Shown: positions 23,990 to 42,680 of the stretch, in pieces
Numbering within the stretch: the first letter of the stretch is position 1
Layout of the letters: the number at the start of each line of letters is the position of its first letter
From: Thermoanaerobaculia bacterium
GTDB lineage: Bacteria > Acidobacteriota > Thermoanaerobaculia > UBA5066
DNA: 64,000 nt
NCBI GenBank assembly: GCA_046331465.1
Contig: JAXLQV010000003.1
Span: forward strand, 1,344,420-1,408,419
Direction: 5' to 3'
The notes under the pieces: model-generated
What the model was told of the DNA's origin: nothing
The model's input: only the letters and a program-made list of their open reading frames with translations
Database searches by the model: none
Made by a program: the position numbers and the translations under genes

Positions 23990-25750
23990 CTACCGGATCG
24001 TCAGCGGCGGCGCGGAGAGGACCCCTTCCTGCCGCTCCGCCTCCACCTGACGCAGGAGGGGCCGGAGGGGCTCGACGAGCCGCACGAGGGCGGTGAACGA
24101 GCTCTCGCCCTCCTCTTCTCCCGAGATCTTCGCCGCGAGCTCCTCGTACGGCGTCCGCTCCCGCGGGAAGACCGCCACCTTCACCTTCTCGCCCGCCGGG
24201 ATCTTCGCCGCCTCCTTCGCGAGCTTCAGCGCGGTCGGGAAGCCGCCGAGCTCGTCGACGAGGCCGAGCCCCTTCGCGTCCTCTCCGGTCCAGACGCGCC
24301 CCTTCGCGATCTCGAGGACCTTCTCCTTCGGGAGCTTCCGCCCCTCGGCGACCTTCGACGTGAAGTCGTCGTAGATCCGGTCGAGCCAGGCGTTGAAGCG
24401 GGCCCACTCGGCAGGGGAGAAGCTCCTCGACGCGTTCCACATGTTCGCGTTCGCGCCGACTTCGACCTGGTCGAACGTCAGCCCGACCTTCTCCCACATC
24501 GCGGGGGTCACCATCTTCCCGGCGAGGACGCCGATCGACGCGGTGATCGTGCCGGGCTGGGCGACGATCTTCGTCGCCGGTATCGAGACGAAGTAGCCGC
24601 CCGAGGCGGCCACGTCGCCCATCGAGATGATCACCGGCTTTCCGGCCTTCCTCGCGAGGACGACCTCGCGCCAGATCGTGTCGGAGGCGACGTAGGAGCC
24701 TCCGGGGCTCGAGACGCGGAAGAGGATCGCCGCGACGTCGCGGTCCTCGACGGCGGTCCGGATCGCCTTCGCGACCGTCTCCGATCCCATCGTCTGCCCG
24801 CCGGTGACCGGGTTGCCGCTGCTCCGGCCGCGGACGACGTTGCCGACGCCGTAGACGAGGGCGATCGTCCTCTTCCCCTCGGCGTGCGGCCGCCCCTCCC
24901 GCTTCAGGTAGGCCGGGAGTCCGAAGAGCTTCGAGTCCGTGCCCCCCTTCGCCCTGAGCTTCGCGAGGACCTCGTCCCGGTAGGCGAGGCCGTCGACGAG
25001 CTTCGCCTCGAGCGCCTCGGGCCCGAGGAACGGGCCGCGGTCGACGAGCGCGCGGACGTCGGCCTCCGTCATCTTCCGCCCCTCGGCGATCCCCTTCACC
25101 ATCTGCCCGTAGATCGACTCGAGGAGCGTCCTCGTCGCCTCCCGGTGCGCGTCGGTGAACTTCGTCTCCGTGTAGAGGTTCATCGCGTTCTTGAACTCGT
25201 GGCGCTGGCCGAACTCCGGCTTGACGCCGAGCTTGTCGAGCGTGCCGCGCAGGAACGGGCTCTCGCCGACGAGGCCGTTCAGGCCGACGTCTCCCGACGG
25301 CTGGAGCCAGATCTCGTCGAAGGCCGTCGCGAGGTAGTAGGAGCCGTTCCCCGGCGCGAACTCGCCGAACGTCTCCGCGTAGGCGACGGCGAACTTCTTC
25401 TTCGCCCGGAACGCCTTCACCGCGTCGCGGATCTCCTGGATCTCGGCGACGCCGAGCGGCGCGGCGCCGAGGCGCGCGACGAGGCCGACGACGTGCGGGT
25501 CGTCCCCCGCCTTCTCGAGGCCGTCGACGACGTCGCGCAGCGTGAAGGCCTTCTCGCCGCCGAAGACGGCGAAGGGGTTCTCGGGGGCCGCCTCGGGGAT
25601 CGCCCGCTCGAGGTCGAGCTCGAGGATCGCCCTCTTCGGGACCGACGGCTTCGCCTTCCCGGTGAGGAAGACGCCGGCGCCGACGAGGCCGGCGCCGAGG
25701 ACGACGATGACGAGGACGACGACGAGGAGACCCTTCCCGCCCTTGGCCAT
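23990..25750 (-). CDS. sppA: Signal peptide peptidase SppA, 67K type (S49 family)
   Basis: 586 aa; N-terminal TM; duplicated ClpP/crotonase-like S49 domains with SPGGS catalytic-serine motif and GDVAASGGY. Confidence 0.9.
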   Translation of the reverse strand: MAKGGKGLLVVVLVIVVLGAGLVGAGVFLTGKAKPSVPKRAILELDLERAIPEAAPENPFAVFGGEKAFTLRDVVDGLEKAGDDPHVVGLVARLGAAPLGVAEIQEIRDAVKAFRAKKKFAVAYAETFGEFAPGNGSYYLATAFDEIWLQPSGDVGLNGLVGESPFLRGTLDKLGVKPEFGQRHEFKNAMNLYTETKFTDAHREATRTLLESIYGQMVKGIAEGRKMTEADVRALVDRGPFLGPEALEAKLVDGLAYRDEVLAKLRAKGGTDSKLFGLPAYLKREGRPHAEGKRTIALVYGVGNVVRGRSSGNPVTGGQTMGSETVAKAIRTAVEDRDVAAILFRVSSPGGSYVASDTIWREVVLARKAGKPVIISMGDVAASGGYFVSIPATKIVAQPGTITASIGVLAGKMVTPAMWEKVGLTFDQVEVGANANMWNASRSFSPAEWARFNAWLDRIYDDFTSKVAEGRKLPKEKVLEIAKGRVWTGEDAKGLGLVDELGGFPTALKLAKEAAKIPAGEKVKVAVFPRERTPYEELAAKISGEEEGESSFTALVRLVEPLRPLLRQVEAERQEGVLSAPPLTIR

Positions 25751-25913
25751 GGAAACCTCACGGCCGGCCGGCTTCGGCCGGCGCGGCGTCGGCCATTATG
25801 GTCCGCGCCCGCGTGGGGGGCCGCCGCGCGCAGGGGCCGTGCGCCGGCCCGGGCACCCGTGCGAGACTCCTCCCCACGACCCCGGCCCGAACGAGTTCCC
25901 CAGAGGAGGCCGC

Positions 25914-26535: not shown

Positions 26536-28389
26536 TCACGGGGCGACCATCGCCTCCCAGACGGCGCGCGACATCTTCCGCGTCGCCTCGACGACCGCCT
26601 TCCGCCCCTCTTCGTTCGCGCCGAAGTCGGTCGCGAGGAGGACGAGGACGTACTCGCGCCCGTCGGGGAGGCGGACGACGGCCGAGTCGTGCTGCACCTT
26701 CGAGATGGTGCCGGTCTTGTGCGCGACGACGGCGCCCGCCTGCTTCGGGATGCCGGCCGGGATCTGGTCGTTGAACTCCTGCGCCGCGAGGATCTCGAAC
26801 GCGATGCGGCGCGACTCGGCCGAGAGCTTCGGCGTCCTCACGGCGGCCTCCATCAGCGCGGCCAGCCCGTCGGCGTCCGTCTCGTTCGAGATCCCGGCCT
26901 CATAGGCCTTCGTGTCCTCGACCATCCTCCGCACCTTCAGGGTCGGCGCGCCCAGCGCGTCGACGAAGCGCTGGACGTCCTTCGGCGGGCAGAGGCCGAG
27001 CATCAGGTTCGTCGCGACGTTCGAGGAGCGGACGATCATCTCCCGGGCGACGAAGTCGAGCCGCGCCGTCCCGCCGAGGAAGGGCGCGATCCGGTCATCG
27101 CCCCCCTTCTCGAGCTCGACGCGGAACGCGGAGCCGTCGACCATGCTCGGGAAGCAGTCGACGACGGGGACGCCGGTCGAGAGGGAGAGCGACCCCTCGT
27201 CGATCCTCCGGAGCGCCTCGAGGAGGACGGCCGTCTTCATCGTCGACGCCGCGTGCATCACGGTCGCCGCGTTCCGCTTCACCGTCACGCCGGTGCCGAG
27301 GTCCTTCACGACGATCCCGAACGTCGCCTTCGTCCCGGCGGCGATCGCGTCGAGCTCCTTCCCGAGCGCCTCGGCCTTCGCCTTCGTCAGGCCGGAGGGG
27401 CGCGGGGCGCCGGGGAGGGCGGCGAGGCGGCGGGCGTAGCGGAAGCGGGGCGCGAGCCGCTCGCTCTCGAAGGCCGTCTCCTTCGTCGACGGCACGCCGT
27501 ACTGCGTCGCCTGGAGGACCTCGCCGTCGCCCGCCCAGAACGCGACGTGGTCGATCTTCTCGGGAGTGCCGAAGAAGAGGAGGTCGCCCGGGGCGAGCTG
27601 GTCGCGCCGCACGGGGACGAGCTGCGGGTCGCGGAAGCACATCTCGGAGCTGTTGCGGAGGAGGAGGACCCCGTGCCTCTCGAGGACGCGCCAGACGAGG
27701 CCGGAGCAGTCGAAGCCCCACGGCGTCGTCCCGCCCCAGGTGTAGGGGGCGCCGAGGAAGCGGCGGGCCATCGCGAGCCAGGAGGCGGGGTCGAGGACGG
27801 GGGGCGCCTCGCGCGGACGCTCTGGGGCGACGTCGTCCGCCGAGACGAAGCCGTTCCGCCCGTCGGGGAGGAGGACCTCGCGCCAGGCGTGCTTCTCGGC
27901 CTCGAGCGTCCGGAGGCCTCCGAGCCGCGCGCCGAGCGGCGCGGTCGCGAGCGGGGGGGATTTCTCGAAGCTCGGCTCGCGGTAGACGTGCGCGAGGTTC
28001 GACGTCACCTCGAGCGGCTCCGCCGACGGGTCGGGGACCCCGGGGCGGAGGGCCGCGGCCTCGATCCAGCCGCGCGAGCCCGAACGGAGCTTCGCCCAGA
28101 CGAATCGCCCCTCGGCGCGAGAGGTCTCCACGGTCTCGCCGAGGATCGCCTGGTCGTCCACCGGCGCGAGCGTCTCCGGCCGCACGAGGAGGTTCGCGAA
28201 CGGGACGACGACGACCGCGGCGGAGGGGGCGGCCGCCTGCGGGCCGGGAGCCTGAGGGGCTGCGGCCGGAGCCGCGGCCTTCGACGCGGCCGTCGTCGCG
28301 GCCGGTGGCGTCTGCGCCGCGGCGGAGAGGGCGAGGAGGAACGCGAGGGGCGCGGCGAGGTGCGGCCGGGGAGCGCGGCGACGGCTCAT
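26536..28389 (-). CDS. Secreted tri-domain fusion: SH3b-like + NlpC/P60 (C40) peptidoglycan endopeptidase + class-A beta-lactamase-like serine hydrolase domain
   Basis: ATG at 28387-28389 in ORF 26536..29547; signal peptide; NlpC/P60 motifs GAPYTWGG...GFDCSGLV...GDLLFF...HVAF; C-terminal domain with class-A motifs STMK (SxxK), SSNVATN (SDN-like), KTG. Confidence 0.8.
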   Translation of the reverse strand: MSRRRAPRPHLAAPLAFLLALSAAAQTPPAATTAASKAAAPAAAPQAPGPQAAAPSAAVVVVPFANLLVRPETLAPVDDQAILGETVETSRAEGRFVWAKLRSGSRGWIEAAALRPGVPDPSAEPLEVTSNLAHVYREPSFEKSPPLATAPLGARLGGLRTLEAEKHAWREVLLPDGRNGFVSADDVAPERPREAPPVLDPASWLAMARRFLGAPYTWGGTTPWGFDCSGLVWRVLERHGVLLLRNSSEMCFRDPQLVPVRRDQLAPGDLLFFGTPEKIDHVAFWAGDGEVLQATQYGVPSTKETAFESERLAPRFRYARRLAALPGAPRPSGLTKAKAEALGKELDAIAAGTKATFGIVVKDLGTGVTVKRNAATVMHAASTMKTAVLLEALRRIDEGSLSLSTGVPVVDCFPSMVDGSAFRVELEKGGDDRIAPFLGGTARLDFVAREMIVRSSNVATNLMLGLCPPKDVQRFVDALGAPTLKVRRMVEDTKAYEAGISNETDADGLAALMEAAVRTPKLSAESRRIAFEILAAQEFNDQIPAGIPKQAGAVVAHKTGTISKVQHDSAVVRLPDGREYVLVLLATDFGANEEGRKAVVEATRKMSRAVWEAMVAP

Positions 28390-28407
28390 CGTGGGGATAA
28401 TCGTCGC

Positions 28408-29541
28408 ATGACCACGCCGCTGTCGCGCCGCGACCTCCTCGCCGTCTCCGGCTCCGTCGCCGCCTCCGCCCTCCTCCCGCGCCTCGCCGAGGCCGCGGCT
28501 CCGGCTCCCGCCGCCGCGACCGCGGCGACGCTCGACCTCGCGCCGATGCTCCTGAAGCTCCGGCACACCTGGACGATCTCGCGAAACTCCTCGAACGAGA
28601 AGAAGAACGGCCTCCTGACGCTGACGGCGGGCGGGATCACCGGCTACGGCGAGACCGCGGCGAACGTCCGCTACGGCCAGAGCTGGGAGAGCGGCGAGGC
28701 GGCCTTCGCGAAGGTGAAGGCGGCCTGCGCGGGGCTCTCGCCGTGGGAGCACCTCGCCTGGCTCGAGCGGGCCGAGGAGGCCGCGGGGGGCGACTCGCAG
28801 GTCGTCGCGGCGCTCGACATGGCACTCTGGGACTGGAAGGGAAAGGCGGTCGGCCAGCCCGTCTGGAGGCTCCTCGGCATCCCGACGGGGCGGATGGCGC
28901 AGACGACGTTCTCGATCGGCATCGACACGGCCGAGGCGATGAAGGAGAAGGTGAAGGAGGCGGAGCCCTATCCCCTCCTGAAGGTGAAGGTCGGGCTCGC
29001 GAACGACGAGGAGAACGTCACGGCGATCCGCTCCGTCACGAAGAAGCCGATCCGCGTCGACGCGAACGAGGGGTGGAAGAGCGCCGAGGAGGCGCTGAAG
29101 AAGATCGCCTGGCTGAAGACGATGGGGATCGAGTTCGTCGAGCAGCCGCTCCCGGCGGCGAAGAACGCCGAGATGAAGGCGGTGAAGGCCGGGTCGGCCC
29201 TCCCGCTCGTCGCGGACGAGTCGGTCCTCCACGTGAAGGACGTCCCCTCGCTCGTCGGCCTCTTCGACGGCGTGAACGCCAAGCTCGCCAAGTGCGGCGG
29301 GATCACCCGCGCGTACGAGCTCGCCGCGCTCGGCCGGGCGCTCGGCTTCAAGCTGATGCTCGGCTGCATGATCGAGTCGTCGCTCGGCATCGCGGCGGCC
29401 GTCGCCGTCGCGCCGCTCTTCGACTGGCTCGACCTCGACGGGAACCTGCTCGTCGCGAACGACCCGTGGAAGGGGCTGACGCTGAAGGAGGGGCGCTGGG
29501 AGCTCCCGGCGGCGCCGGGCCTCGGCGTCGTGCCGGCCTGA
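28408..29541 (+). CDS. L-Ala-D/L-Glu (dipeptide) epimerase, enolase superfamily (YkfB/YcjG-like), with predicted Tat signal peptide
   Basis: ATG 28408; RRDLLAVSGSVAASALLPRLAEAAAPA Tat-type signal; MR/MLE fold with conserved KVK(V)G, D-x-N-E, E, D, K metal/base residues; 377 aa. Confidence 0.8.
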   Translation: MTTPLSRRDLLAVSGSVAASALLPRLAEAAAPAPAAATAATLDLAPMLLKLRHTWTISRNSSNEKKNGLLTLTAGGITGYGETAANVRYGQSWESGEAAFAKVKAACAGLSPWEHLAWLERAEEAAGGDSQVVAALDMALWDWKGKAVGQPVWRLLGIPTGRMAQTTFSIGIDTAEAMKEKVKEAEPYPLLKVKVGLANDEENVTAIRSVTKKPIRVDANEGWKSAEEALKKIAWLKTMGIEFVEQPLPAAKNAEMKAVKAGSALPLVADESVLHVKDVPSLVGLFDGVNAKLAKCGGITRAYELAALGRALGFKLMLGCMIESSLGIAAAVAVAPLFDWLDLDGNLLVANDPWKGLTLKEGRWELPAAPGLGVVPA

Positions 29542-29560: not shown

Positions 29561-31177
29561 CTAGGGGGCCTCGTCCTCCTCCGGCGGCGGGACGAACGGG
29601 CGGAGCTTTTCCGCGAGCTCGAGACCGCGCCGGATCACCTCGTTCCAGGGGAAGAGGGCGCCGGGGTCGGGCTTGCGCCCGGGGGCGACGTGCTGGTGGC
29701 CGGCGATCCAGGGGGCCTCGAGGCCGAGCTGCGCCGTCAGGACGCCGACGACCCGCACGACCGTCTCGACCTGGGCGCGGGTGAAGGGATAGCGGTTTCC
29801 GTCGCCCGTGATCTCGACCCCGACCGAGTCGCGGTTCAGGACGGTGCGGCCGTGGAGGTCCGAGGAGCCCGCGTGCCACGCCCGGTGCTCGAGCGAGACG
29901 AACTGCCAGAGCCGGCCGCTCCTCCCGACGAGGAAGTGCGAGGAGACGAAGCTTGCCGGGTCGAGGAAGAGCGAGATGCACGTCTCGTCCTCGTCCATCG
30001 CGGTGTGGTGGAGGACGAGCGTGTCGAGCGGCCGGATCTTCTCGGGGTGCCACCCTTCCCAGAAGGAGTTCGGCATCGGGACCAGGCAGCCGTCGTTCGG
30101 GTCGCCGCCCGCCCTCTCCCAGAGCTCCCAGAAGAGGCGGTCCGCGGGGCGGAAGACGCGCTCGAGGCCGGGCGCACCTCCCCTCGCCTCGAGCGGCGTC
30201 ACCTCGAGGCGCGCGAGCGCCGGCGCGAGGGGCCGTTCCGCCGAGAGGTCGATGCGGGGGCGGTCGGGGAGGTCCCGCGACCACTCGTCGACGATCTCCC
30301 TCGCGATCTCGCCCATCGCGCGGTTCGCGCTCACGGCGGCGCCGGGCTTGGTCGGGATCCGGTCGGCGAACATCGCGAAGACGAACGTCCCCTTCGGCGT
30401 CGCGAGGACCCCCGAGTCGACCCTCACTCCGCTCATCGTCCCGGTCTTGCCGGCCCAGGAGGTCCCGGGGCGCGAGGCGAGGAGGCGCGGGATCCGGTCG
30501 GCCGTCCTCGGGTTCGCCGCGAGGCGCATCGCGACGCGGCTCGACTCCCTGTCGAGGAGCGTCCCGGTCGCGGCGCGACGCCAGAGCTCGGCGGTGTCGC
30601 GCGGCGTCATCCGGCCGAGGGGCTTCCAGGGGACGTCCTCCTCGGGGGAGCCGAGGTCGGGGATCCGCCCGACGAGCTCGATCCCGGCGAGCCCGAGCTC
30701 CGCCATGCGGCAGTTCACCGCCTCGGCGCCGAAGGCGTCAATGAAGTGGTTCGCGGCGGTGTTGTCCGAGAGCGCCATCATGAGACGCAGGAGGTCCCTC
30801 TCCGTCGGCGCGAGCCACGGCTCGAACTCGTCGAGGACCCCCGAGCCGGCGGCCACGGATCGGGGCGTCAGGCGCCAGCGCTGCTCGAGGTCGAGCGTCC
30901 CCTCGCGCTGCCGCGCGAGCGCCTCGACGAGGAGCGCGAGCTTGACGACGCTCGCCCCCTCGAACGTCTCCGTGTCCCGCCACCGGAGCTCCCGGCCGCT
31001 CTCGACGTGGAGGGCGACGATCCCCATCCGCGCGCCGCTCTCCTCCGCCCGCCGCGCGACGCGCCGGGCGAGCGTCTCGGACGCGGGGCGAACGGAGAGG
31101 CCCGGGGGTGGGGCGGTGGAGCAGGCGGCGAGGAGGAGGAGGAGCGCGGCGAGCGCCGCGGCCGGGCGGCAGGTCAC
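29561..31177 (-). CDS. Lipoprotein fusion: class-A beta-lactamase-like domain + N-acetylmuramoyl-L-alanine amidase (Amidase_2, AmpD/AmiD-like)
   Basis: GTG 31175-31177 overlapping GGDEF gene stop; lipobox LLLLLAACS; N-domain SVVK / SDNTAAN / KTGT class-A motifs; C-domain AmpD signature (HHTA...AWHAG...GVEI...GHQHVAPGRKPDPG). Confidence 0.8.
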   Translation of the reverse strand: MTCRPAAALAALLLLLAACSTAPPPGLSVRPASETLARRVARRAEESGARMGIVALHVESGRELRWRDTETFEGASVVKLALLVEALARQREGTLDLEQRWRLTPRSVAAGSGVLDEFEPWLAPTERDLLRLMMALSDNTAANHFIDAFGAEAVNCRMAELGLAGIELVGRIPDLGSPEEDVPWKPLGRMTPRDTAELWRRAATGTLLDRESSRVAMRLAANPRTADRIPRLLASRPGTSWAGKTGTMSGVRVDSGVLATPKGTFVFAMFADRIPTKPGAAVSANRAMGEIAREIVDEWSRDLPDRPRIDLSAERPLAPALARLEVTPLEARGGAPGLERVFRPADRLFWELWERAGGDPNDGCLVPMPNSFWEGWHPEKIRPLDTLVLHHTAMDEDETCISLFLDPASFVSSHFLVGRSGRLWQFVSLEHRAWHAGSSDLHGRTVLNRDSVGVEITGDGNRYPFTRAQVETVVRVVGVLTAQLGLEAPWIAGHQHVAPGRKPDPGALFPWNEVIRRGLELAEKLRPFVPPPEEDEAP

Positions 31178-32967
31178 GCGGGGGCGTCCTCCTCGGGCGG
31201 GGCGGAGACGATCCGGTTCTTGCCGGTCGTCTTCGCCTCGTAGAGCGCGGCGTCGGCGCGCTTGACGACCACGTCCGCGTGCGGCGCGGCGGGGTGGGTC
31301 GTCGTCGCGACGCCGGCGCTGATCGTGACCTGGAGGCGGAGCCGCTCGGCGGCGCTCCCGTCGCCCGCCGGGAAGCGCGGGAGGTCGTAGAAGGCGTCCG
31401 TCTCGACGGCGTGGCGGATCCGCTCGGCGACGATCGCGGCGCCCGCGGCGTCGGTGTCGGGGAGGACGGCCAGGAACTCCTCGCCCCCCCAGCGCCCGAC
31501 GAGGTCGCAGGAGCGGAGCGCGGAGCGGAGGACGAGCGCCGTCCGCCGGAGCATCTCGTCGCCCGTGTGGTGGCCGTGCTCGTCGTTGAAGACCGAGAAG
31601 TCGTCGATGTCGATCATGACGACGGAGAGGGGCGGCGCCGGCCGCATCTCCTCGGCCTCCCCCCGGGAGAGGGCGAAGGCGCCGGAACGCCGGCGGAGCC
31701 GCTCCCACTCGCGCGCCAGCGCCTCCTCCGTGGCGCGCCGGTTCGGCAGGCCGGTCAGGTAGTCGGTCCTCGCGGAGGTGACGAGCGTCGTCACGTCGTG
31801 GAACGTCGCGAGCTGGAGGAGCCCGGAGGGGAGCCGGACGGCCCGGATCGCCATCTGCACGTCCCTCCGCTCGCCGCCCGGCAGGGCGAGCGCCGTCTCG
31901 AACGCCTCGGGCGACGCCGAGGCGAGGAGCCGCGCGAGGCGCGCCCGCTCGGGGGGCGGGACGAGCTCGAGGAAGAGCCGGCGCCCGACGAGCTCGGCCC
32001 GCGTCGTCCCGGCGAGGCGGACCGCCGCGTCGTTGGCGTGGACGACGAACCCGTCGCGGAGCGTCACGAGGGCCTGCCCGGCGTCGGAGAGCGCCTCCAT
32101 GAGCGCCGTCTTCTCGAGGAGCTCGGCACGGCGGCGCGCCTCCTCGCGTCCCCGCTGGAGCGCCTGGCCCACCAGCGGGGCGAGCGTCCCGAGGAGCTCG
32201 GCGTCGGCCGCGTCGTGCTCGACGCCTCCCGAGGCCCAGACGACGAGGGCGCCGAGGTCCGCGCCGAGCGGGGCGCCGAGCCACGAGGTCGACGGGACCG
32301 GAGCGGAGGCGAGCCGGCCCGCGGCCCGCTCCGCCTCCCAGGCCGCGGGACCGAGGCTGGCCGGCTCCCCGTCCGCGAGGATCCGCCCGGCCACGGCCCA
32401 CATCGCGTCCCGCACGTCCTCCCCGAGGCTCTCGGGAGCCGAGTAGAGGAGCTCGACGCGCGCCGTCTCGGGGTCGAGGCCGACGACGGCGAAGCAGGGC
32501 GCCGGGACGAGCCGCGCGAGGAGCGCGTGCGCGACCGGGAAGAGCTCGGCCGGCGACGGCGACTCGCGGACGCTCCGGAGGAGCGCGAGGAGGCAGTCGT
32601 GGACGGCCGCCGCCCGCCGCTCCGCCGTCACGTCGCGCGCCGCGACGGCGAGCCCTCCCGCCGTCGGCGAGAGAGAGAGCTCGGCGAAGAAGATCGACCC
32701 GTCGACCCGGCGGTGCCGGACGACGCCCTGGAACCCCTCCGCGAGCGGTTCCGGGAGGGGGGGCGGCGCCCCCGGCCGGGAAACGACGAGGTCGCGGAGG
32801 AGGACGTTCCCGAGGGAGCCGTCGGGAGCCCCGTGCAGCGCGTGGAACGCCGCGTTCGCCCACGTGATGCGGCCCGAAGCGTCCGCGACGGCGAGTGCCG
32901 TCCCGGCCGCGGCGAAGGCGCGCGCGAAGACCTCTCCCGCCGTCATCGTTCCGTTCGTCGCGAGCAT
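31174..32967 (-). CDS. Diguanylate cyclase (GGDEF) with N-terminal PAS/GAF-type sensor domains
   Basis: 597 aa; RWGGEEF active-site motif, I-site-like RxxD; stop overlaps downstream amidase start. Confidence 0.8.
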   Translation of the reverse strand: MLATNGTMTAGEVFARAFAAAGTALAVADASGRITWANAAFHALHGAPDGSLGNVLLRDLVVSRPGAPPPLPEPLAEGFQGVVRHRRVDGSIFFAELSLSPTAGGLAVAARDVTAERRAAAVHDCLLALLRSVRESPSPAELFPVAHALLARLVPAPCFAVVGLDPETARVELLYSAPESLGEDVRDAMWAVAGRILADGEPASLGPAAWEAERAAGRLASAPVPSTSWLGAPLGADLGALVVWASGGVEHDAADAELLGTLAPLVGQALQRGREEARRRAELLEKTALMEALSDAGQALVTLRDGFVVHANDAAVRLAGTTRAELVGRRLFLELVPPPERARLARLLASASPEAFETALALPGGERRDVQMAIRAVRLPSGLLQLATFHDVTTLVTSARTDYLTGLPNRRATEEALAREWERLRRRSGAFALSRGEAEEMRPAPPLSVVMIDIDDFSVFNDEHGHHTGDEMLRRTALVLRSALRSCDLVGRWGGEEFLAVLPDTDAAGAAIVAERIRHAVETDAFYDLPRFPAGDGSAAERLRLQVTISAGVATTTHPAAPHADVVVKRADAALYEAKTTGKNRIVSAPPEEDAPA

Positions 32968-33011: not shown

Positions 33012-34154
33012 ATGAATGGGTTGACGGCCGAGACACCTCCCTCCCCGGTCCCCTCCGGCCGGCTCGCCGCCCTCGACCTCTTCCGGGGCGCGACGGTGGC
33101 CGCGATGCTCTTCGTGAACAACCCGGGGAGCTGGTCGCACATCCTGCCGCCGTTCGAGCACGCCGAGTGGAACGGCTGCACCCCGACGGACCTCGTCTTC
33201 CCGTTCTTCCTCTTCATCGTCGGCACGGCCTCGGTCCTCTCGCTCGGGAAGCGCGCCGCTCAGGGGGCGAGCCGCGGGGCGCTCGCGCGGCACGCGGTGC
33301 GGCGGGGCGCGACGATCGTCCTCGTCGGCTGGGCGCTCACCGCCTTCCCGTTCAACCTGCAGCGTCTCCTGCACCTCCGGATCCCGGGCGTCCTCCCGCG
33401 CATCGGGGTCGTCTACGCGCTCGGCGCGCTGCTCCTCGTCGCCGCGCCGGTGCGCCGGAAGGCCCTCTTCCTCGGACTCGCCACGGCGCTCCTCCTCGCC
33501 CTCCACACGGCGCTCCTCTCCCTGCCGGGCTACGACCTGACGATCGAGGGGAACCTCCAGACGGCGATCGACCTCGCGCTCCTGAAGGGGCACCTCTGGA
33601 AGAAGGCGTGGGACCCGGAGGGGGTCCTCTCCACGCTGACCGCCCTCGCGACGATGCTGACGGGAGCGCTCACCGGGCTCCTCCTGACGTCGAAGGCCTC
33701 CCTGAAGGAGCGGCTCGCCGGCCTCGGCGCCGCGGGAGCCGCGGGCGTCGCGGCTGGGCTCGCGTGGCAGGCGCTCGGCCTCCCGCTCAACAAGGGGCTC
33801 TGGACCGGCTCCTACGTCCTCTTCACCTCGGGCGCGGCGTGCCTCTCTCTCCTCGCCGCGATCGCCGTCGTCGACCTCCTCGGCGTGAGGAGGCCCTTCG
33901 CCCCGCTCTTCACGTTCGGGACGAACCCGCTCCTCGCGTTCGTCCTCTCGGGCCTCCTCGCGAAGATCCTCGGCATGGTGAAGGTGGCCGGGGCGGACGG
34001 CCGCGTGTCGCTCACCTCGTTCCTCTACGAGCGGGTCTTCCTCCGCGTCGGCGACCCGTACCTCGCCTCGCATCTCCAGGCGCTCGCGTTCCTCGCGGTC
34101 ATCTGGGCGGTCCTCCGGTACTGCGAGAGGCGCGGCTGGTACTGGAAGGTCTGA
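33012..34154 (+). CDS. DUF1624 / HGSNAT-like (heparan-alpha-glucosaminide N-acetyltransferase catalytic-domain-like; NagX-like) multi-pass membrane acyltransferase family protein
   Basis: ATG 33012; LDLFRG motif near N-terminus, ~10 TM helices, typical of acyltransferase-3/DUF1624 NagX-like proteins found in amino-sugar loci. Confidence 0.65.
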   Translation: MNGLTAETPPSPVPSGRLAALDLFRGATVAAMLFVNNPGSWSHILPPFEHAEWNGCTPTDLVFPFFLFIVGTASVLSLGKRAAQGASRGALARHAVRRGATIVLVGWALTAFPFNLQRLLHLRIPGVLPRIGVVYALGALLLVAAPVRRKALFLGLATALLLALHTALLSLPGYDLTIEGNLQTAIDLALLKGHLWKKAWDPEGVLSTLTALATMLTGALTGLLLTSKASLKERLAGLGAAGAAGVAAGLAWQALGLPLNKGLWTGSYVLFTSGAACLSLLAAIAVVDLLGVRRPFAPLFTFGTNPLLAFVLSGLLAKILGMVKVAGADGRVSLTSFLYERVFLRVGDPYLASHLQALAFLAVIWAVLRYCERRGWYWKV

Positions 34155-34155
34155 C

Positions 34156-35157
34156 TCAGCCGGAGGCGAGGAGCCGGCGCGGCGTCTCCGAGGCGGCGTG
34201 CCGCGCCTCGTCGAACGTCGCCGCGCCGCAGGCAGCGAGCCTCTCCACGCAGTCGTCGAGGAGGGCGACGCTCCCCGCGAGGCCGCCCGAGGCGTTCCGG
34301 ACGGCCCCGGCGGAGACCGTGAGCGTCTCGCCCCAGACGGAGTAGTCCCCGTCGGCGAGGCCGGCGCAGGGCGCCGCGTCGCTGATCAGGACGAACCCCT
34401 CCGGCCCCTTGCAGCGCCGGACGAGGGCGAGCATCTCGGGGGAGAGGTGGTGGAGGTCGGCGATGACGTCGACCGTCGCGCCGTCGCGGAGGAGCCCCCA
34501 GCCGACCGGACCGGCGTCGCGGTGGTGGAGCGGCTTCATCGCGTTGCCGAAGTGGGTCATGTGCCGGGCGCCGCGCGCGAGCGCCGCGTCGAGCGTCGCG
34601 ACGTCGGCCTCGGTGTGGCCGAGGGCGACGACGAAGCCGCGGCGGACGAACGCCGAGACGAGGTCGAGGCCCCCCGGGATCTCGGGGGCCATCGTGACGA
34701 CGGGGCGGCCGGGGAGCTCGCCGACGGCGTCGAAGAACGCGTCGACGACCCGCGGGTCGCACCCGTCGAGGAGGCACGCGCGGTGGAGGGCGCCCGAGCG
34801 GTTCGGCGAGACGAACGGCCCCTCGAGGTGGATCCCGAGCGGCATCGCGCCGCGCCCGTCCCCCTCGCTCCGCGAGCGGACCCACGCGGAGAGGCGCGCG
34901 AGGAGCGGCGCGAGGTCGCCGAGGGGGACCGGGACGAGCGTCGGGACGAAGCCGGTCACGCCGCGCGCCTCGAGGCCGAGGGCGAGGCGGTCGAGCTCGG
35001 CCTCGCCCGCGGTCAGGACGTCGACGCCGAAGGCGCCGTGGATGTGGAGGTCGACGAGGCCGGCGGCGCTCAGGACGGCTCCTCCTCGAGGGCGCGTGCG
35101 ACGTTGCCGTTCCGCGCGGCGATCCACTCGCGCGCCTTCTCGAGAGGGAGGCTCCAC
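34156..35157 (-). CDS. nagA: N-acetylglucosamine-6-phosphate deacetylase (NagA), short-N-terminus variant; start uncertain (GTG 35157 or 35127)
   Basis: Metal-binding DLHIHG...HLEGP...HTEA...HFGNAM...D motifs of amidohydrolase NagA; N-terminal ~25 aa Arg-rich and overlaps murQ 3' end. Confidence 0.75.
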   Translation of the reverse strand: MEPPSREGARVDRRAERQRRTRPRGGAVLSAAGLVDLHIHGAFGVDVLTAGEAELDRLALGLEARGVTGFVPTLVPVPLGDLAPLLARLSAWVRSRSEGDGRGAMPLGIHLEGPFVSPNRSGALHRACLLDGCDPRVVDAFFDAVGELPGRPVVTMAPEIPGGLDLVSAFVRRGFVVALGHTEADVATLDAALARGARHMTHFGNAMKPLHHRDAGPVGWGLLRDGATVDVIADLHHLSPEMLALVRRCKGPEGFVLISDAAPCAGLADGDYSVWGETLTVSAGAVRNASGGLAGSVALLDDCVERLAACGAATFDEARHAASETPRRLLASG

Positions 35158-35915
35158 CGCTCCGAGACGAGTGCCAGGGGGAGCTCCCAGTCGGCCTTAA
35201 CGAGGAGCCGCTCGGCGGGCTCGGGGGGGAGCGCGAGGAGGCGGCCGAGGATGTCGATCGCGCGCCGCTTCAGCTTCGCGTTCGTCGGGCGCATCGCGAC
35301 CATCTCGCCCCGCCAGACGAGGCCGCGCCGCGCCATGACGGCCGTCGAGAGCATGTTGAGGACGAGCTTCTGCGCCGTCCCCGCCTTCATCCGCGTCGAG
35401 CCGCGGAGCACCTCGGGCCCCGTCTCGACGACGAGGGCGAGGTCGGCGATCGACGCGAGCCGCGAGCCGGGCACGCCGACGAGGGCGACCGCGAGCGCCC
35501 CGATTCCCTTCCCCCAGCGGAGCGCGCCGGCGACGTACGGCGTCGCGCCGCTCGCGGCGATCCCGAGGACGACGTCGCGCGCCGTGACGCCCGCCATCTT
35601 CACGTCCTCGGCCCCCTGCGCCTCGTCGTCCTCCGCCCCCTCGACGGCGTGGACGAGCGCCTCGCTTCCGCCGGCGACGATCCCGGTGACGAGGCGGGGG
35701 GGGACGCCGAAGGTCGGCGGGAGCTCCGAGGCGTCGAGGACGCCGAGCCGTCCGCTCGTCCCGGCGCCGGCGTTGATCCACTTCCCGCCGGCGTCGAGGC
35801 GCGCGGCGATCTCGTCGGCGGCGTGCGCGACCTCCGGGAGGATCCTCCCGACGGCGCGGACCGCCTCCAGGTCGGCCTCGTGGATCGCCGCGAGGAGGGC
35901 GAGCGTGTCGGTCAA
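35070..35915 (-). CDS. murQ: N-acetylmuramic acid 6-phosphate etherase MurQ (SIS domain)
   Basis: 281 aa; near-identical core motifs to E. coli MurQ (GAGTSGRLGVLDASELPPTFGV, HAVEGAEDD, RMKAGTAQKLVLNMLST); ATG overlaps kinase stop. Confidence 0.9.
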   Translation of the reverse strand: MTDTLALLAAIHEADLEAVRAVGRILPEVAHAADEIAARLDAGGKWINAGAGTSGRLGVLDASELPPTFGVPPRLVTGIVAGGSEALVHAVEGAEDDEAQGAEDVKMAGVTARDVVLGIAASGATPYVAGALRWGKGIGALAVALVGVPGSRLASIADLALVVETGPEVLRGSTRMKAGTAQKLVLNMLSTAVMARRGLVWRGEMVAMRPTNAKLKRRAIDILGRLLALPPEPAERLLVKADWELPLALVSERWSLPLEKAREWIAARNGNVARALEEEPS

Positions 35916-36847
35916 GGCGTCCCCTCGGCGAGGGCGAGCCGGATCGCGCCGATCTCCGGGACGTGCGCGGGCGGACCGAGGCGCGCCCGCGGCGCGCCCG
36001 CGAGGAGCCGCTCGCGCAGCGGGGCGAGGACGAGCTCGCCCGCGACGAAGACGCCGCCGACGGTCGCCACCGTCACCTCGTCCTGCGCGATGCCGAGCTT
36101 GCGGAGGACGGTGAGCGACGTGAGCGCGAGCTCGCCCGCCGCCCAGCGGAGGATCTCGAGGGCGATCCCGTCGCCGTCCCGGGCGGCGTCGAGGACGACC
36201 GGGAAGTAGGCCGCCACGTCGGTCGGCCCCGCGTCGGGACGGAAGAGCCTCCGCACCATCTCGACGGCCGACCGCGTCCCCTCCGTCGAGTGGAGCCCCT
36301 CGCGCATCTTCGTCCGCGGTCCGCGCCCGTCGACGTCGCGCGCGACGGCGGCGAGGCCGCGCCGCGCGATTTCGGAGGCGGAGCCCTCGTCGCCGATGAG
36401 CGCGCCCCAGCCGCCCGCCCGCTCCTCGAGGCCGTGGGAGTTCCGGCCGAAGCAGATCGCCCCCGTCCCCGCGATGAGGACGGCGCCCGAGTCGGCGACC
36501 GGGTCGCGGAGCGCCCCGGCGAGCGCGATCCGCGCGTCCGTCGTGACCCGGATCCTGCCGGCGCCGTAGACGGCCTCGAGCGCCGAGACGAGGCGCCCCT
36601 TCATCGCCGACGCCTCGACGCCGGCGAGGCCGCAGGAGACGACGGCGACGTCGGCGCGCGCCGCACCGGCCGCCTCGAGGGCATCGTCGACGGCCTCCGT
36701 GACGGACTGGACGAGGCGCGGGACGGGGACGGTCGAGGCGTTCGCGGGGCCCGACGCGCCGCGGCCGAGGGCGAGGAGGTCGGAGGCGGTGACGACGGCG
36801 CGGGTCCGGGTGCCGCCGCCGTCGACGCCGACGTAGAGGCTGGGCAT
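35912..36847 (-). CDS. BadF/BadG/BcrA/BcrD-type ATPase family sugar kinase, predicted N-acetylglucosamine/N-acetylmuramic acid kinase (MurK/NagK-like)
   Basis: ATG 36845-36847; LYVGVDGGGTRTR phosphate-1 motif; ASKHA fold; genomic coupling to murQ. Confidence 0.75.
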   Translation of the reverse strand: MPSLYVGVDGGGTRTRAVVTASDLLALGRGASGPANASTVPVPRLVQSVTEAVDDALEAAGAARADVAVVSCGLAGVEASAMKGRLVSALEAVYGAGRIRVTTDARIALAGALRDPVADSGAVLIAGTGAICFGRNSHGLEERAGGWGALIGDEGSASEIARRGLAAVARDVDGRGPRTKMREGLHSTEGTRSAVEMVRRLFRPDAGPTDVAAYFPVVLDAARDGDGIALEILRWAAGELALTSLTVLRKLGIAQDEVTVATVGGVFVAGELVLAPLRERLLAGAPRARLGPPAHVPEIGAIRLALAEGTP

Positions 36848-38915: not shown

Positions 38916-41666
38916 TCAGAAGCTGAAGAGCGCCGAGAGGGTGAACCGCCGCGGCGAGGTCCAGCTCGTCGCCTGGCCGAACGTCGGGTTCGGCTGCTTG
39001 GTCCCCTGCGGGCCCAGCGTGCTCGCCGGGTTCCCGTCGACGTACGGATCGAGGTACTCGGTAGAGCTGACGCCCGTGACCGTCTGGCTGTCGAAGAGGT
39101 TCTGGACGCGCCCCTCGAGGCGGAGCGAGTTGCCGCCGCCCAGCTTGAAGTTGTAGGCGAGCAGCATGTCGAGGTTCGTCCGGGTCGGGAGGCGGCGCGA
39201 GCCGGCTGGCTCGAGGTAACGGCCGTAGGTGGTGCTCGGCGTGGCGCCGCGGGCCTCCCAGGGGGTCCCGCTCTGGACGCGGAGGTAGCCGCCGAGCGTG
39301 AAGCCGTAGACGTCGTAGCTCGCCATCAGCTTGAAGATGTGCGGCCGGTCCTGGAGGAGCGTGCCGTACCGGTTCGGCTCCGCGCTGTTGAACCCCGGCT
39401 CGTCCTCGAGGTACGACGAGGTGCTGTACTGGCCGGCCGAGAAGTCCTCGTCCCAGTTCCCGCGGAGGCGGCTGTAGGTGTAGCTGACGCTCGCGTACCA
39501 GTTGTCGGCCTGGCGCTTCGTCACTTCGAACGAATAGCCGCGGTAGATGCGGGTCGCGTCCGGGAACGTCTTCGCCTGGAACGAGCCGAAGTAGTTGTTC
39601 GGGTCGACGGGCGTGTCCTCGAACGGGTTGTTGAGGCTCTTGTACTGGTAGTGGACGTCGAAGGAGAGGACCTTGCCGACCGGAGCTTCGTAGCCGAGGA
39701 CGTACTCGTCCTGGGTGGGGGACGTCAGGTCGGACGGGATGTACTTGCCGGACGAGGAGCCGCGGAACGAGGTGGAGATGAAGGCACCGGTGTCCCTGCG
39801 CCAGTAGGTCTGGTTCTCGCGGATCCGGTAGGGGGCGAACGACCGGAGGGTGTTCTTCTGGTCGAGGCCGGCGTACCTCCCGTAGTTCGCGTAGACCTTG
39901 TCGCCCGTCAGGAGCTCGGTGTTGTAGACGATGCCGATGCGGGGCTGGACCTGGTCGCCCCACCGGAAGGTCATGAAGTTGTAGCGCATCTCTTCCGTCA
40001 GCGGCGGGGCGGTCGTGGACTGGCTGCAGACCATCCCCGGCTCGCAGATCTGGGCGAAGTCGTCGTAGTTGAAGAGGACGCCGACCGTCGCCGAGAGGCG
40101 CTTCCAGGTGACCGTGTCCTGGAGGAACGCGGAGTAGGTTCGGGCCTTCCCGAGCTGCTCCGGCTGGAATTCGTAGTAGCGGGCCCGGACGGCCGCGACG
40201 CCCCCCGTCGAGGTGTAGATCAGGGTCCCCCAGCCGTTCGACTGCCGGGCGAAGGTGAGGTCGACGAACTCGGCGCCGCCGCCGACCTTGATCTGGTGCT
40301 GCGTCTCGCCCCAGTCGAGGAACTGGCTCGCGACGAGCTTCACCTCGTCGCGGGTGTAGTTCTCGCCCGTGTTCGTGTACGGGTAGACGCCGGTGTTGCC
40401 GCCGCCCCGCGTCGGGTCGTAGTAGCCGCCGTAGGCGCCCAGGTTCGTCGTCTGGGGGAGCGGGCTCGGCCGGTTCGTCAGGATTGTGTTGGCCTGGACC
40501 GTCGGGTTGTCGGTCGAGTGGACGTACTTGAGCTCGACGAGCGTGTTCTGGCCCGCGAACCAGTTCGCCGCGAAGTTCCCGATGTAGTTCGTGTTGTCCT
40601 GGCCCCAGCCCGCGGAGGCCACGTCGTAGGCATTGTCGAAGCCGTTCGTCGTCTTGGTCGGGAGGCCGCGGAACCCGGCGTTGAAGAGCCAGTGGTCGCC
40701 GGCGTAGGCGGTCAGCTTCCCGAAGTAGTCCCAGTTCGTCGTCTTCGTGTCGGGCTGCGTCGTCGTGACGCCGCTGATCGTCGCCGACTGGCCGCTCGTC
40801 TTCGTGTCCGAGTAGCGGGCCGAGACGTACCCGAAGAGGGTGTCCTTGACGATGGGGAAGCCGAGGCTCGCCGCACCGTTCCAGGTGTCGACGTCGGAGG
40901 AGACTCCGTGCTCGTTCGCGGACTGGAACGACGAGGGGCGCCCCTCGACGCGGAAGCTCCCGTGGAACTCGTTCGTCCCCGACTTCGTGACGGCGTTCAC
41001 GACGGCGCCCGTCGTCCGGCCGGACTCGGCCGAGATGGCGCCCGTCTTCACGTTCACGTCGGCGATGTCGAGCTCGTTCGTCTCGACGCCGAGGTTGCCG
41101 TAGCCCCCGTTCGTGATGTTGACGCCGTCGATGAGGTACTTGTTCTCCTGGCGGGTCCCTCCGGCGACGGCGACGTAGCCGCTGCTGCCGTCGGATGCTG
41201 GGGCGCTCGGGATCAGGTTGAGGAGGCCCTCGTAGCTCCGGGCGACCGGGAGCTGCCGGACGTCCTGAGACGCGAAGTTCGTCGCGACCTCGGTCGACTT
41301 CTGGTCGACGCTCGCGGCCGTAACCTCGACGGTGACCGCGGTCGATCCCTTCAGAACGAGGTCGACCTGGTAGTCGCGGTCGATCTGGACGTCGACGGTC
41401 TTGCTCGCCTGGCCGAGTCCCTGGAGGGCGGCCTCGACGGTGTACTTGCCGGGGAGGAGCCGCTGGAAGTTGTAGGCGCCGTTTGATCCGGTGACGAACG
41501 AGCGGCCCGCCGGGAGCTGGGCTCCCGAGACCTTCACCATGACGCCGGGGAGCGCGCCGCCGTTCGCGTCGGCGACCTTCCCCGAGATGGAGCCCGTCTC
41601 GCCCGCGAACGCCACGGACGCGGCGACGAGCAGGACGACGGCCATCAGAATTCGGAACGACCTCAT
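38916..41666 (-). CDS. TonB-dependent receptor-like outer membrane protein with N-terminal carboxypeptidase-regulatory-like (CarbopepD_reg) domain
   Basis: ATG 41664-41666 preceded by GGAGAGGAGAGG; signal peptide; CarbopepD_reg-type N-terminus (GSISGKV...GALPGVMVKV); C-terminal beta-barrel ending in aromatic residue (F). Confidence 0.85.
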   Translation of the reverse strand: MRSFRILMAVVLLVAASVAFAGETGSISGKVADANGGALPGVMVKVSGAQLPAGRSFVTGSNGAYNFQRLLPGKYTVEAALQGLGQASKTVDVQIDRDYQVDLVLKGSTAVTVEVTAASVDQKSTEVATNFASQDVRQLPVARSYEGLLNLIPSAPASDGSSGYVAVAGGTRQENKYLIDGVNITNGGYGNLGVETNELDIADVNVKTGAISAESGRTTGAVVNAVTKSGTNEFHGSFRVEGRPSSFQSANEHGVSSDVDTWNGAASLGFPIVKDTLFGYVSARYSDTKTSGQSATISGVTTTQPDTKTTNWDYFGKLTAYAGDHWLFNAGFRGLPTKTTNGFDNAYDVASAGWGQDNTNYIGNFAANWFAGQNTLVELKYVHSTDNPTVQANTILTNRPSPLPQTTNLGAYGGYYDPTRGGGNTGVYPYTNTGENYTRDEVKLVASQFLDWGETQHQIKVGGGAEFVDLTFARQSNGWGTLIYTSTGGVAAVRARYYEFQPEQLGKARTYSAFLQDTVTWKRLSATVGVLFNYDDFAQICEPGMVCSQSTTAPPLTEEMRYNFMTFRWGDQVQPRIGIVYNTELLTGDKVYANYGRYAGLDQKNTLRSFAPYRIRENQTYWRRDTGAFISTSFRGSSSGKYIPSDLTSPTQDEYVLGYEAPVGKVLSFDVHYQYKSLNNPFEDTPVDPNNYFGSFQAKTFPDATRIYRGYSFEVTKRQADNWYASVSYTYSRLRGNWDEDFSAGQYSTSSYLEDEPGFNSAEPNRYGTLLQDRPHIFKLMASYDVYGFTLGGYLRVQSGTPWEARGATPSTTYGRYLEPAGSRRLPTRTNLDMLLAYNFKLGGGNSLRLEGRVQNLFDSQTVTGVSSTEYLDPYVDGNPASTLGPQGTKQPNPTFGQATSWTSPRRFTLSALFSF

Positions 41667-41827
41667 AAAGCCTCTCCTCTCCTTCCTTGCCCCGAAATGG
41701 ACCATTAGAAAAACCTTGGAAGATAGACGGTCGGGAGCCTAGCGCCTCGAGGTCAGGAATTCCAGCGGTGAAGTCTCCCGGGCCGATGGCCTTCGGCTGG
41801 GGAAAGGGCTGCCAGAATCGGAACGCG
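41667..41827. promoter_or_regulatory. AT-enriched divergent promoter region (TonB-dependent receptor / GDPD gene)
   Basis: Only markedly AT-richer stretch in window (aaatggaccattagaaaaaccttggaagatagacgg) lying between divergent gene starts. Confidence 0.3.
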
Positions 41828-42619
41828 ATGCCGCCCCCCGCGCCGCGCGAGCCAGGGCCCCCCCCGCCCGGCCTCTCCCTCGCCCTCCCCGGGCGCGCGA
41901 AGCCGTACGTGATGGCCCACCGGGGGAACCGGGTCGCCTGCCCCGAGAACACGCTCGCGTCGTTCCGGCGGGCCGTCGAGGACGGAGCCGACATCCTCGA
42001 GACGGACCTCTACCTCTCGGCCGACGGCACCTTCGTCTGCATTCACGACCCGACCCTCGAGAGGACGACGGACGGGACGGGCCCGGTCGAGGCGCGGACG
42101 CTCGCGGAGCTGAAGTCTCTCTCGGCCTCCTGCGGCCGGCCGGAGTTCGCCTCCGAGCGGATCCCGACGCTCGCCGAGGTGGCGGCGCTCCTGCCGCCCG
42201 ACCGGGGGCTCGCCCTGGAGCTGAAGAGCGACCGGTTCCTCGACCCGGAAGTCGGCCGTCGGCTCGGAAAGGAGCTGAGTGACCTCGACGTCCTCGGGAG
42301 GAGCTTCGTGATCTCCTTCTCCCGTGCCCGCCTCGACGCGACCCGGGTCGGGGCGCCGGGCCTTCCGTCGGGCTGGATCACGCTCAAGGAGGCCCGGCCC
42401 GTGCGGGGCGTCGAGCTCCTCGGCCCGTTCTGGCCCCTCCTCCTCGTGAACCCGCTCTACGTCGTCCGGGCGCACCGGCGGGGGCAGGCCGTGGCGCCGC
42501 TCGACCCGACGCCCGACGGGCGCCTCTGGCTCTACCGGCTCCTCGGCTGCGACGCCGTCCTGACGGACGACCCGGAGAAGACGATCCGGCAACTCGGGCG
42601 CGCCGTCTCCCGTACATGA
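41828..42619 (+). CDS. Glycerophosphodiester phosphodiesterase (GDPD) family protein; start ambiguous (ATG 41828 or GTG/ATG 41909/41912)
   Basis: HRGN...E-x-D catalytic motif (MAHRGNRVACPENTLASFRRAVEDGADILETDL); 263 aa from 41828. Confidence 0.65.
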   Translation: MPPPAPREPGPPPPGLSLALPGRAKPYVMAHRGNRVACPENTLASFRRAVEDGADILETDLYLSADGTFVCIHDPTLERTTDGTGPVEARTLAELKSLSASCGRPEFASERIPTLAEVAALLPPDRGLALELKSDRFLDPEVGRRLGKELSDLDVLGRSFVISFSRARLDATRVGAPGLPSGWITLKEARPVRGVELLGPFWPLLLVNPLYVVRAHRRGQAVAPLDPTPDGRLWLYRLLGCDAVLTDDPEKTIRQLGRAVSRT

Positions 42620-42680
42620 GAAGTGCGCCGGCCCCGGCGCGATAATGAGATTTCCGTTCAATTCGGAGGGAGGATTCCAC

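Follow-up and report, generated by a model that had tools for sequence, protein, structure and literature searches.

What role could a lipoprotein play that carries, in one chain, a domain with the class A beta-lactamase fold and a zinc amidase of the Amidase_2 family? The question was raised by a gene at positions 29561–31177 (minus strand) of a 64,000-nucleotide stretch, called here the window, from a Thermoanaerobaculia bacterium of the Acidobacteriota (GenBank assembly GCA_046331465.1, contig JAXLQV010000003.1, positions 1,344,420–1,408,419). An earlier note on this DNA had suggested either a bifunctional muropeptide DD-carboxy/endopeptidase plus amidase, or a beta-lactam-sensing amidase. 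The first suggestion is the best supported by the comparisons reported here, which are based on sequence, structure prediction and gene context; no positive evidence was found for the second. We propose that the protein is a bifunctional periplasmic muropeptide hydrolase, combining a DD-peptidase with an N-acetylmuramic acid (MurNAc)-L-Ala amidase and serving in peptidoglycan scavenging or recycling, a reading to which we give a probability of roughly 60%.

A Conserved Two-Domain Lipoprotein

The gene lies in a 64-kb window with a G+C content of about 73% and encodes 538 amino acids (aa). Its start codon, GTG, and the stop codon of the gene upstream, TGA, overlap as GTGA. Pfam placed a Beta-lactamase2 domain (PF13354) at aa 52–270 (E = 3.4e-43) and an Amidase_2 domain (PF01510) at aa 382–506 (E = 1.7e-28; 100 bits for a gathering cut-off of 26 bits). 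A signal peptide with a lipobox, VTCRPAAALAALLLLLAAC, ending at Cys19 (31121–31177, minus strand), was recognised from the sequence and its conservation. Conservation was counted over an 86-sequence family alignment at 55–95% identity, or over 76 fused sequences for the amidase residues. Cys19 was present in 85 of the 86 aligned relatives and invariant in 27 full-length ones. From this conserved lipobox the protein is predicted to be exported, anchored by a lipid at Cys19, and periplasmic. Pfam and the lipobox thus confirmed the covalent fusion and the lipoprotein character asserted in the earlier note, and the motifs quoted there were all found at the expected places.

An AlphaFold2 model built on the 86-sequence alignment had a mean predicted local distance difference test score (pLDDT) of 88.6 and a predicted template modelling score of 0.69. 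It contained two well-folded domains: the class A-fold N-domain, similar to the proteins PBP-A and LRA-5, at aa ~28–300 (30278–31096, minus strand), and the zinc-amidase C-domain with a conserved N-terminal extension, delimited by Pfam and Protein Data Bank (PDB) matches at aa ~328–528 (29594–30196, minus strand). The Pro-rich linker between them, aa ~301–327 (30197–30277, minus strand), was of lower confidence in the model, with an average pLDDT of 67 over the 10-residue block aa 311–320, and was variable in the alignment of the 27 relatives.

A word-indexed search of 5.8 billion proteins returned more than 100 clusters at 90% identity that combined PF13354 with PF01510, at 55–95% identity to the window protein. 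They came from metagenome-assembled genomes (MAGs) of Holophagales, of Thermoanaerobaculia or of unclassified Acidobacteriota. Where the homologues bore a name at all, it was "serine hydrolase", "beta-lactamase class A" or "N-acetylmuramoyl-L-alanine amidase". Among 185,579 species genomes, about 50 loci had a fusion-type match of at least 55% identity; of these, 43 were full-length and non-redundant. Every locus was in a MAG and none in a cultured isolate. The two-domain fusion lipoprotein is therefore real and conserved, and an assembly artefact or a frameshift fusion was ruled out by the recurrence of the same single open reading frame in the more than 100 clusters and in about 43–50 species genomes. 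When 1.84 billion representatives at 50% identity were scanned with HMMER, only two full-length ones were obtained, P0051 (62% identity) and P0121 (46%); the other long matches were different fusions (two Beta-lactamase2 domains; Beta-lactamase2 with Peptidase_S11 and PG_binding; Beta-lactamase2 with SLH; two Amidase_2 domains). The architecture had been thought to be undescribed. This held for the literature, in which no paper on the Beta-lactamase2 and Amidase_2 pair was found, nor any joining Acidobacteriota, MurQ and peptidoglycan, but not for the sequence collections, where the fusion is well represented.

One 1.17-Mb contig labelled "uncultured Gammaproteobacteria" (locus L049, CAWDOO010000004.1) carried the whole gene cluster at 76–96% protein identity to the window. 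Here the contig was probably mislabelled or misbinned.

The N-Terminal Domain

A genuine class A beta-lactamase, conferring resistance and joined to an AmpD-like amidase in control of its induction, might be read from the three class A motifs, which are present in the right order and spacing, from the strong Pfam Beta-lactamase2 match and from the label "beta-lactamase class A" on some homologues. The SxxK motif, SVVK, is at aa 76–79 (30941–30952, minus strand), with Ser76 as the nucleophile and Lys79 (Ambler 70 and 73), and was conserved in 86/86 sequences. The SDN motif at aa 137–139 (30761–30769, minus strand; Ambler 130–132) had S and N in all 86 and D in 85, and the KTG motif at aa 244–246 (30440–30448, minus strand; Ambler 234–236) had K, T or S, and G in all 86. 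The earlier note had asked whether the active site was intact, including the equivalent of Glu166. The acylation motifs proved to be so, but the Glu166 equivalent is Ile172. In the omega-loop segment GRIPDLG (30650–30670, minus strand), this Ile was aligned with Ambler position 166, at which the 86 sequences had Ile (84), Val (1) or Tyr (1), and never Glu. Conservation was also absent at the Asn170 position, which was Gly or variable.

The assignment of this column was the same in several alignments. With HMMER, Ile172 aligned with Val166 of LRA-5 and with Leu158 of PBP-A, and the engineered proteins of PDB entries 8EO7 (V166E) and 2J9O (L158E) departed from their wild types exactly at the Ile172 column. 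A MAFFT alignment with TEM-1 placed Ile172 under Glu166 and Pro173 under Pro167. The best solved relatives of the N-domain by sequence were 4EWF (E = 2e-24, a structural genomics entry from Sphaerobacter), LRA-5 (6e-17) and PBP-A/Tll2115 (1.5e-15), all of them class A-fold proteins without Glu166, with TEM following at about 1e-6. The class A fold was matched at template modelling scores of 0.85–0.88. The NCBIfam class A beta-lactamase family NF033103 gave the fusion protein 89.3 bits for a cut-off of 200 bits, and every named bla family scored it far below its cut-off.

PBP-A lacks the omega-loop glutamate, and experiments showed it to act as a DD-carboxypeptidase and as a DD-endopeptidase (PMC11189452). 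The beta-lactamase activity of LRA-5, also without Glu166, is biologically insignificant, and its Y69Q/V166E double mutant had a kcat/Km up to 11,000-fold higher, which its authors linked to the presence of Glu166 (PMC12777564). Since a virtually invariant Ile replaces the deacylating Glu166, as other residues do in PBP-A and LRA-5, the N-domain is most likely, judging by homology, a PBP-A-like, penicillin-binding enzyme of the DD-peptidase type and not a beta-lactamase. It combines a class A-like fold and an unbroken acylation triad with a residue at Ambler 166 that is not acidic. It was not found to belong to the cyanobacterial PBP-A clade itself: identity was about 24–25% in structure-based alignments, and the family members found were all acidobacterial.

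The two reference proteins differ from the N-domain in instructive ways. PBP-A (Tll2115 of Thermosynechococcus elongatus, PDB 2J7V) is a single-domain, cyanobacterial DD-carboxy/endopeptidase similar to class A beta-lactamases (PMC11189452), whereas here the domain is the head of an acidobacterial lipoprotein fused to an amidase. LRA-5 (PDB 8EO5), a class A "beta-lactamase precursor" from a soil metagenome, is related to proteins of Pyrinomonadaceae, also Acidobacteriota (PMC12777564). It shares with the N-domain the class A fold and motifs, a Val166 in the place of Ile172 and an environmental acidobacterial lineage, but it has a single domain, its natural function is unknown, and the identity is about 27%.

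A true beta-lactamase was thus ruled out by the Ile at the Glu166 position and by the NCBIfam cut-offs, and the identity proposed in the earlier note gave way to a PBP-A/LRA-5-like one. The Asn170 position, where conservation is lost, also speaks against it, as does the negligible turnover of LRA-5 and PBP-A without Glu166 (PMC12777564, PMC11189452).

The C-Terminal Amidase

The amidase motifs of the fusion protein are LHHT (aa 389–392), AWHAG (433–437), GVEI (453–456) and GHQHVAPGRKPDPG (493–506). The candidate zinc-ligand and catalytic residues His390/His391, Glu455, His494, Lys502 and Asp504 were conserved in 76/76 fused sequences and aligned with those of AmpDh2; by homology, their AmpD counterparts are His34, Glu116, His154, Lys162 and Asp164. 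The best PDB matches of the C-domain were AmpDh2 (E = 2e-21) and AmiD (1.5e-17), followed by AmpD (1e-15) and AmpDh3 (1e-11). The AmpD equivalog was its top NCBIfam match, with 105.9 bits for a cut-off of 143 bits, and covered only profile positions 76–180. Taking homology and the invariant residues together, the C-domain is an exported zinc amidase of the AmiD/AmpDh2 type.

AmiD of Escherichia coli and AmpDh2 and AmpDh3 of Pseudomonas aeruginosa (PDB 2BH7, 4BJ4 and 4BXD) are periplasmic Amidase_2 enzymes, the first two being lipoproteins. The fusion shares with AmiD and AmpDh2 the zinc-ligand and catalytic residues and the lipoprotein signal. These two enzymes have a C-terminal peptidoglycan-binding domain, whereas Pfam found no PG_binding domain in the fusion, whose chain ends about 20–30 aa past the amidase fold; it has instead the N-terminal PBP-like domain and an extension, about 50 aa long, ahead of the amidase. 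This conserved stretch, RV.R..DR.FW.LW..AGG...CL.P.PNSWWEG, precedes the Pfam Amidase_2 domain and leads into LHHT, and it was modelled with high confidence by AlphaFold2.

AmpD (PDB 1J3G), the cytoplasmic 1,6-anhydro-MurNAc-L-Ala amidase, has the same Amidase_2 fold and catalytic residues. It is, however, a single-domain enzyme tied to AmpG/AmpR/AmpC signalling, while the fusion has two domains and a lipoprotein signal, and Pfam and NCBIfam scans of the window proteins showed no AmpC, AmpR or AmpG in the cluster. The likeness to AmpD and to the induction of AmpC drawn by the earlier note does not apply, because the amidase is exported; an AmpD orthologue acting in AmpC induction was ruled out by export, by the score below the cut-off and by the gene context. 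With an amidase that is an exported lipoprotein and not a cytoplasmic AmpD, and with the N-domain evidence given above, a resistance enzyme coupled to the control of its own induction is highly improbable.

The Gene Cluster

The genes around the fusion form a conserved cluster. Downstream of the fusion, a gene at 28408–29541 (plus strand) encodes an enolase-superfamily enzyme similar to dipeptide epimerases (Pfam MR_MLE_N/C), with a twin-arginine translocation (TAT) signal recognised by Pfam TAT_signal. It is followed by a gene at 26536–28389 (minus strand) for a YkfC-like protein with a signal peptide, SH3_16 and NlpC/P60 domains and a C-terminal Beta-lactamase2 domain (Pfam). On the other side, the gene joined to the fusion by the GTGA overlap (31174–32967, minus strand) encodes a PAS-GAF-PAS-GGDEF protein (Pfam), a predicted cytoplasmic diguanylate cyclase. 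Next come a divergent gene for a transmembrane acetyltransferase similar to NagX and HGSNAT (33012–34154, plus strand; Pfam, with the NagX-like NCBIfam match below its cut-off) and three minus-strand genes, for a NagA-like deacetylase (34156–35157; Pfam), the MurNAc 6-phosphate etherase MurQ (35070–35915; Pfam, and 328 bits in NCBIfam for a cut-off of 168 bits) and a NagK-like BcrAD_BadFG sugar kinase (35912–36841; Pfam). The best NCBIfam matches of the NagA-like and NagK-like proteins were below their cut-offs. At the head of the cluster, a gene at 38916–41705 (minus strand) encodes an outer-membrane protein resembling TonB-dependent receptors (Pfam CarboxypepD_reg, OMP_b-brl_4 and TonB_dep_Rec_b-barrel); homologues of it were also found upstream in many related loci.

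Neighbours were counted over the 43 non-redundant full-length fusion loci, using only those with enough flanking sequence. The epimerase gene was present in 32 of 34 loci, the NlpC/P60–Beta-lactamase2 gene in 27 of 30 and the NagX-like gene in 34 of 36. NagA and MurQ were found in 19 of 29, NagK in 17 of 27 and the long GGDEF gene in 11 of 33. The window thus contains a peptidoglycan recycling or catabolism cluster, conserved in related loci, in which MurQ alone passes the curated NCBIfam cut-off. The NagX/HGSNAT-like gene was the most constant neighbour of the fusion and was always divergently transcribed. It is speculative, but its product could re-acetylate, across the membrane, de-N-acetylated amino sugars of wall fragments.

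The epimerase-like protein had its best NCBIfam matches, neither of which reached its cut-off, in the DgcA racemase and the L-Ala-D/L-Glu epimerase. Export by the TAT pathway is unusual for an L-Ala-D/L-Glu epimerase, since YkfB, YcjG and their like normally stay in the cytoplasm. The twin-arginine signal of the window protein reads MTTPLSRRDLLAVSG, and an S/T-R-R-x-L-L motif was present in 34/34 orthologue N-termini examined. YkfB epimerases have no signal peptide (PMC2954226). Only 18 bp (28389–28408) separate the start codons of the divergent epimerase and NlpC/P60–Beta-lactamase2 genes, and the gap is equal in the related locus L001; with so short a distance, the promoters must be located within the coding sequence of the opposite gene, unless the true start codons are further in.

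The Beta-lactamase2 domain of the NlpC/P60 protein has the motifs ASTMK, SSN and HKTG. It was only 29% identical to that of the fusion in a pairwise comparison, and a recent duplication of the two domains was ruled out on this ground. The protein is a second, independent case of a class A-fold domain tethered to a stem-peptide hydrolase. In the search of representatives, several proteins of about 590–650 aa (P0131, P0138, P0145 and P0169) had their Beta-lactamase2-like match at the C-terminus and may be built like the NlpC/P60–Beta-lactamase2 protein.

These two divergent paralogues and the absence from the cluster of any equivalent of the LD-carboxypeptidases YkfA and LdcA give some ground for a different specificity. 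The N-domain would then still work in the breakdown of wall fragments, but on bonds other than the DD-peptide, as an LD- or D-amino-acid amidase or carboxypeptidase on stem peptides, or as an esterase on O-acetyl or depsipeptide bonds. We consider this rather improbable, as the characterised protein closest to it in sequence and fold, PBP-A, is a DD-peptidase, and SDN and KTG are the motifs of penicillin-recognising enzymes.

The diguanylate cyclase gene showed its own pattern. No convincing transmembrane segment was found in the sequence of the GGDEF protein, which appears to be cytoplasmic. In the clade at about 60% identity (locus L002), a shorter PAS-GGDEF gene lay downstream of the fusion instead. 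This suggests that cyclic di-GMP signalling is recurrently linked to the cluster, without an obvious mechanism. Genes for exported degradative enzymes flank the cluster, with a tandem Peptidase_S49 (SppA-like) at 23990–25795 (minus strand) on one side, and on the other a GDPD phosphodiesterase at 41669–42619 (plus strand) and a Peptidase_S46 similar to dipeptidyl-peptidases 7 and 11 at 42564–44864 (plus strand).

A Model for the Fusion Protein and Its Pathway

In the bifunctional hydrolase that we propose, the amidase head, with its intact and invariant zinc-ligand and catalytic residues, would cut the MurNAc-L-Ala bond, so that muropeptides or glycan strands lose their stem peptides. By analogy with PBP-A and LRA-5, the N-domain would remove the terminal D-Ala and/or open the D-Ala–meso-diaminopimelic acid (mDAP) cross-links of the 4-3 type, and penicillins would acylate it instead of being hydrolysed. 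From muropeptides that are cross-linked or carry a pentapeptide, the joint action of the two heads would yield free, monomeric stem peptides whose N-terminal L-Ala is free. Such peptides would be the substrates of the neighbouring YkfC-like NlpC/P60 enzyme; enzymes of the YkfC type require a free N-terminal L-Ala and work together with an L-Ala-D/L-Glu epimerase (PMC2954226). Next, L-Ala-D-Glu would be the substrate of the TAT-exported epimerase, and the amino sugars would be taken up and passed to the NagK-like kinase, MurQ and NagA. Two features, the TonB-dependent receptor and the export of each of the three enzymes that act on the peptides, point to a processing of peptidoglycan fragments in the periplasm. 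The fragments could be products of the cell's own turnover or scavenged necromass.

The arrangement recalls the murein-peptide pathways of Bacillus (YkfB/YkfC) and E. coli (YcjG/MpaA; PMC2954226) in pairing an SH3b-NlpC/P60 protein with a dipeptide-epimerase-like enzyme, here beside an amidase. It differs from them in the TAT signal of the epimerase, in the signal peptide and additional Beta-lactamase2 domain of the NlpC/P60 protein, and in the lack of an LD-carboxypeptidase (YkfA/LdcA). In contrast with these pathways, the peptide branch appears to be wholly periplasmic.

Several points weigh against the proposed bifunctional role. PBP-A is only about 24–30% identical to the N-domain and its family is said to be found only in cyanobacteria (PMC11189452), so that the DD-peptidase specificity is an extrapolation, and the closest structures, 4EWF and 6V4W, are structural genomics entries without known function. 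The assignments of the epimerase, NagA, NagK and NagX all lie below the NCBIfam cut-offs. In the model, the low-confidence linker leaves the relative orientation of the two domains unfixed. Nor need the two activities be coupled. Stand-alone orthologues of the N-domain, about 310–360 aa long and 55–61% identical, occur with a lipobox, and at one locus (L005/L055, GCA_037443065.1, 3350–4309) such a Beta-lactamase2 lipoprotein, of 319 aa and 58% identity and without an amidase domain, stands in the place of the fusion, beside the NagX, epimerase and NlpC/P60–Beta-lactamase2 genes, with a spermine-synthase-like gene inserted nearby. Lastly, P0121, the 46%-identical fusion, has an intact amidase, but in its N-domain SxxK has become LSAR, SDN has become SDE and KTG has become PSE, which hints that the N-domain could have a non-catalytic role. 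P0121 carries little weight, as it is a singleton in the collection of 5.8 billion proteins, on a 3.9-kb Logan contig.

What such a role could be is best considered together with the missing peptidoglycan-binding domain. The N-domain might be mainly a non-catalytic or slow-turnover module that recognises the D-Ala-D-Ala or D-Ala-mDAP part of stem peptides and targets or gates the amidase, replacing the peptidoglycan-binding domain of AmiD and AmpDh2, or it might be a sensor titratable by beta-lactams, as in the second suggestion of the earlier note. The lack of a PG_binding domain in a chain that stops about 20 aa beyond the amidase fold is consistent with this, as is an amidase kept behind a destroyed SxxK, SDN and KTG in P0121. 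Without Glu166, a stable acylation by beta-lactams is expected, as in PBP-A (acyl-enzyme in PDB 2J8Y; PMC11189452), and in the close clade a diguanylate cyclase gene is translationally coupled to the fusion. Yet the residues needed for acylation do not vary in 86/86 other family members, and this speaks for a chemistry that has been kept, while P0121 is a single sequence on a single short contig. The GGDEF protein, apparently cytoplasmic, is linked to the fusion in only 11 of 33 loci, and no signalling partner able to read out a periplasmic event was found. We therefore regard a recognition or sensing module as unlikely.

The bifunctional hydrolase can be placed in a wider, more tentative picture, which we think somewhat less probable than its converse. 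The Holophagales/Thermoanaerobaculia clade may have moved the whole stem-peptide branch to the periplasm, fed by a TonB-dependent receptor, with two class A-fold DD-peptidase domains tethered to an AmiD-like amidase and to a YkfC-like NlpC/P60 enzyme, and with the epimerase exported by the TAT pathway. This would be a machine for eating foreign walls, that is, necromass.

Significance for Environmental Class A-Fold Proteins

Both domain families are known, and the logic of the cluster is that of known peptidoglycan-recycling pathways. What is new is that a class A-fold domain lacking Glu166 is covalently joined to an Amidase_2 domain, and a paralogue of it to NlpC/P60, that this pairing is confined to an uncultured acidobacterial clade, and that the entire peptide branch, with its TAT-exported epimerase, appears to lie in the periplasm. 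The fusion is well suited to biochemical study and can help to correct the annotation of resistomes, but it brings no new principle.

It is routine to count class A-fold proteins without Glu166 as resistance genes, among them PBP-A, LRA-5 and numerous "putative beta-lactamases" from soil metagenomes, and their natural roles are largely unknown. The position of the fusion and its paralogue in a conserved MurQ/NagA/epimerase cluster offers a physiological context for them, namely the trimming or un-cross-linking of stem peptides in recycling or scavenging. If the bifunctional role is true, the resistome annotation of the Acidobacteriota would be corrected, and a new architecture of bifunctional peptidoglycan hydrolase would be added, together with a periplasmic route of peptidoglycan-peptide catabolism, with its TAT-exported epimerase, in an abundant uncultured lineage of soil and wastewater. 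If, in addition, the cluster is a machine for consuming necromass, widespread environmental "beta-lactamase precursors" without Glu166 would have a natural function, in a pathway that environmental beta-lactams could inhibit directly.

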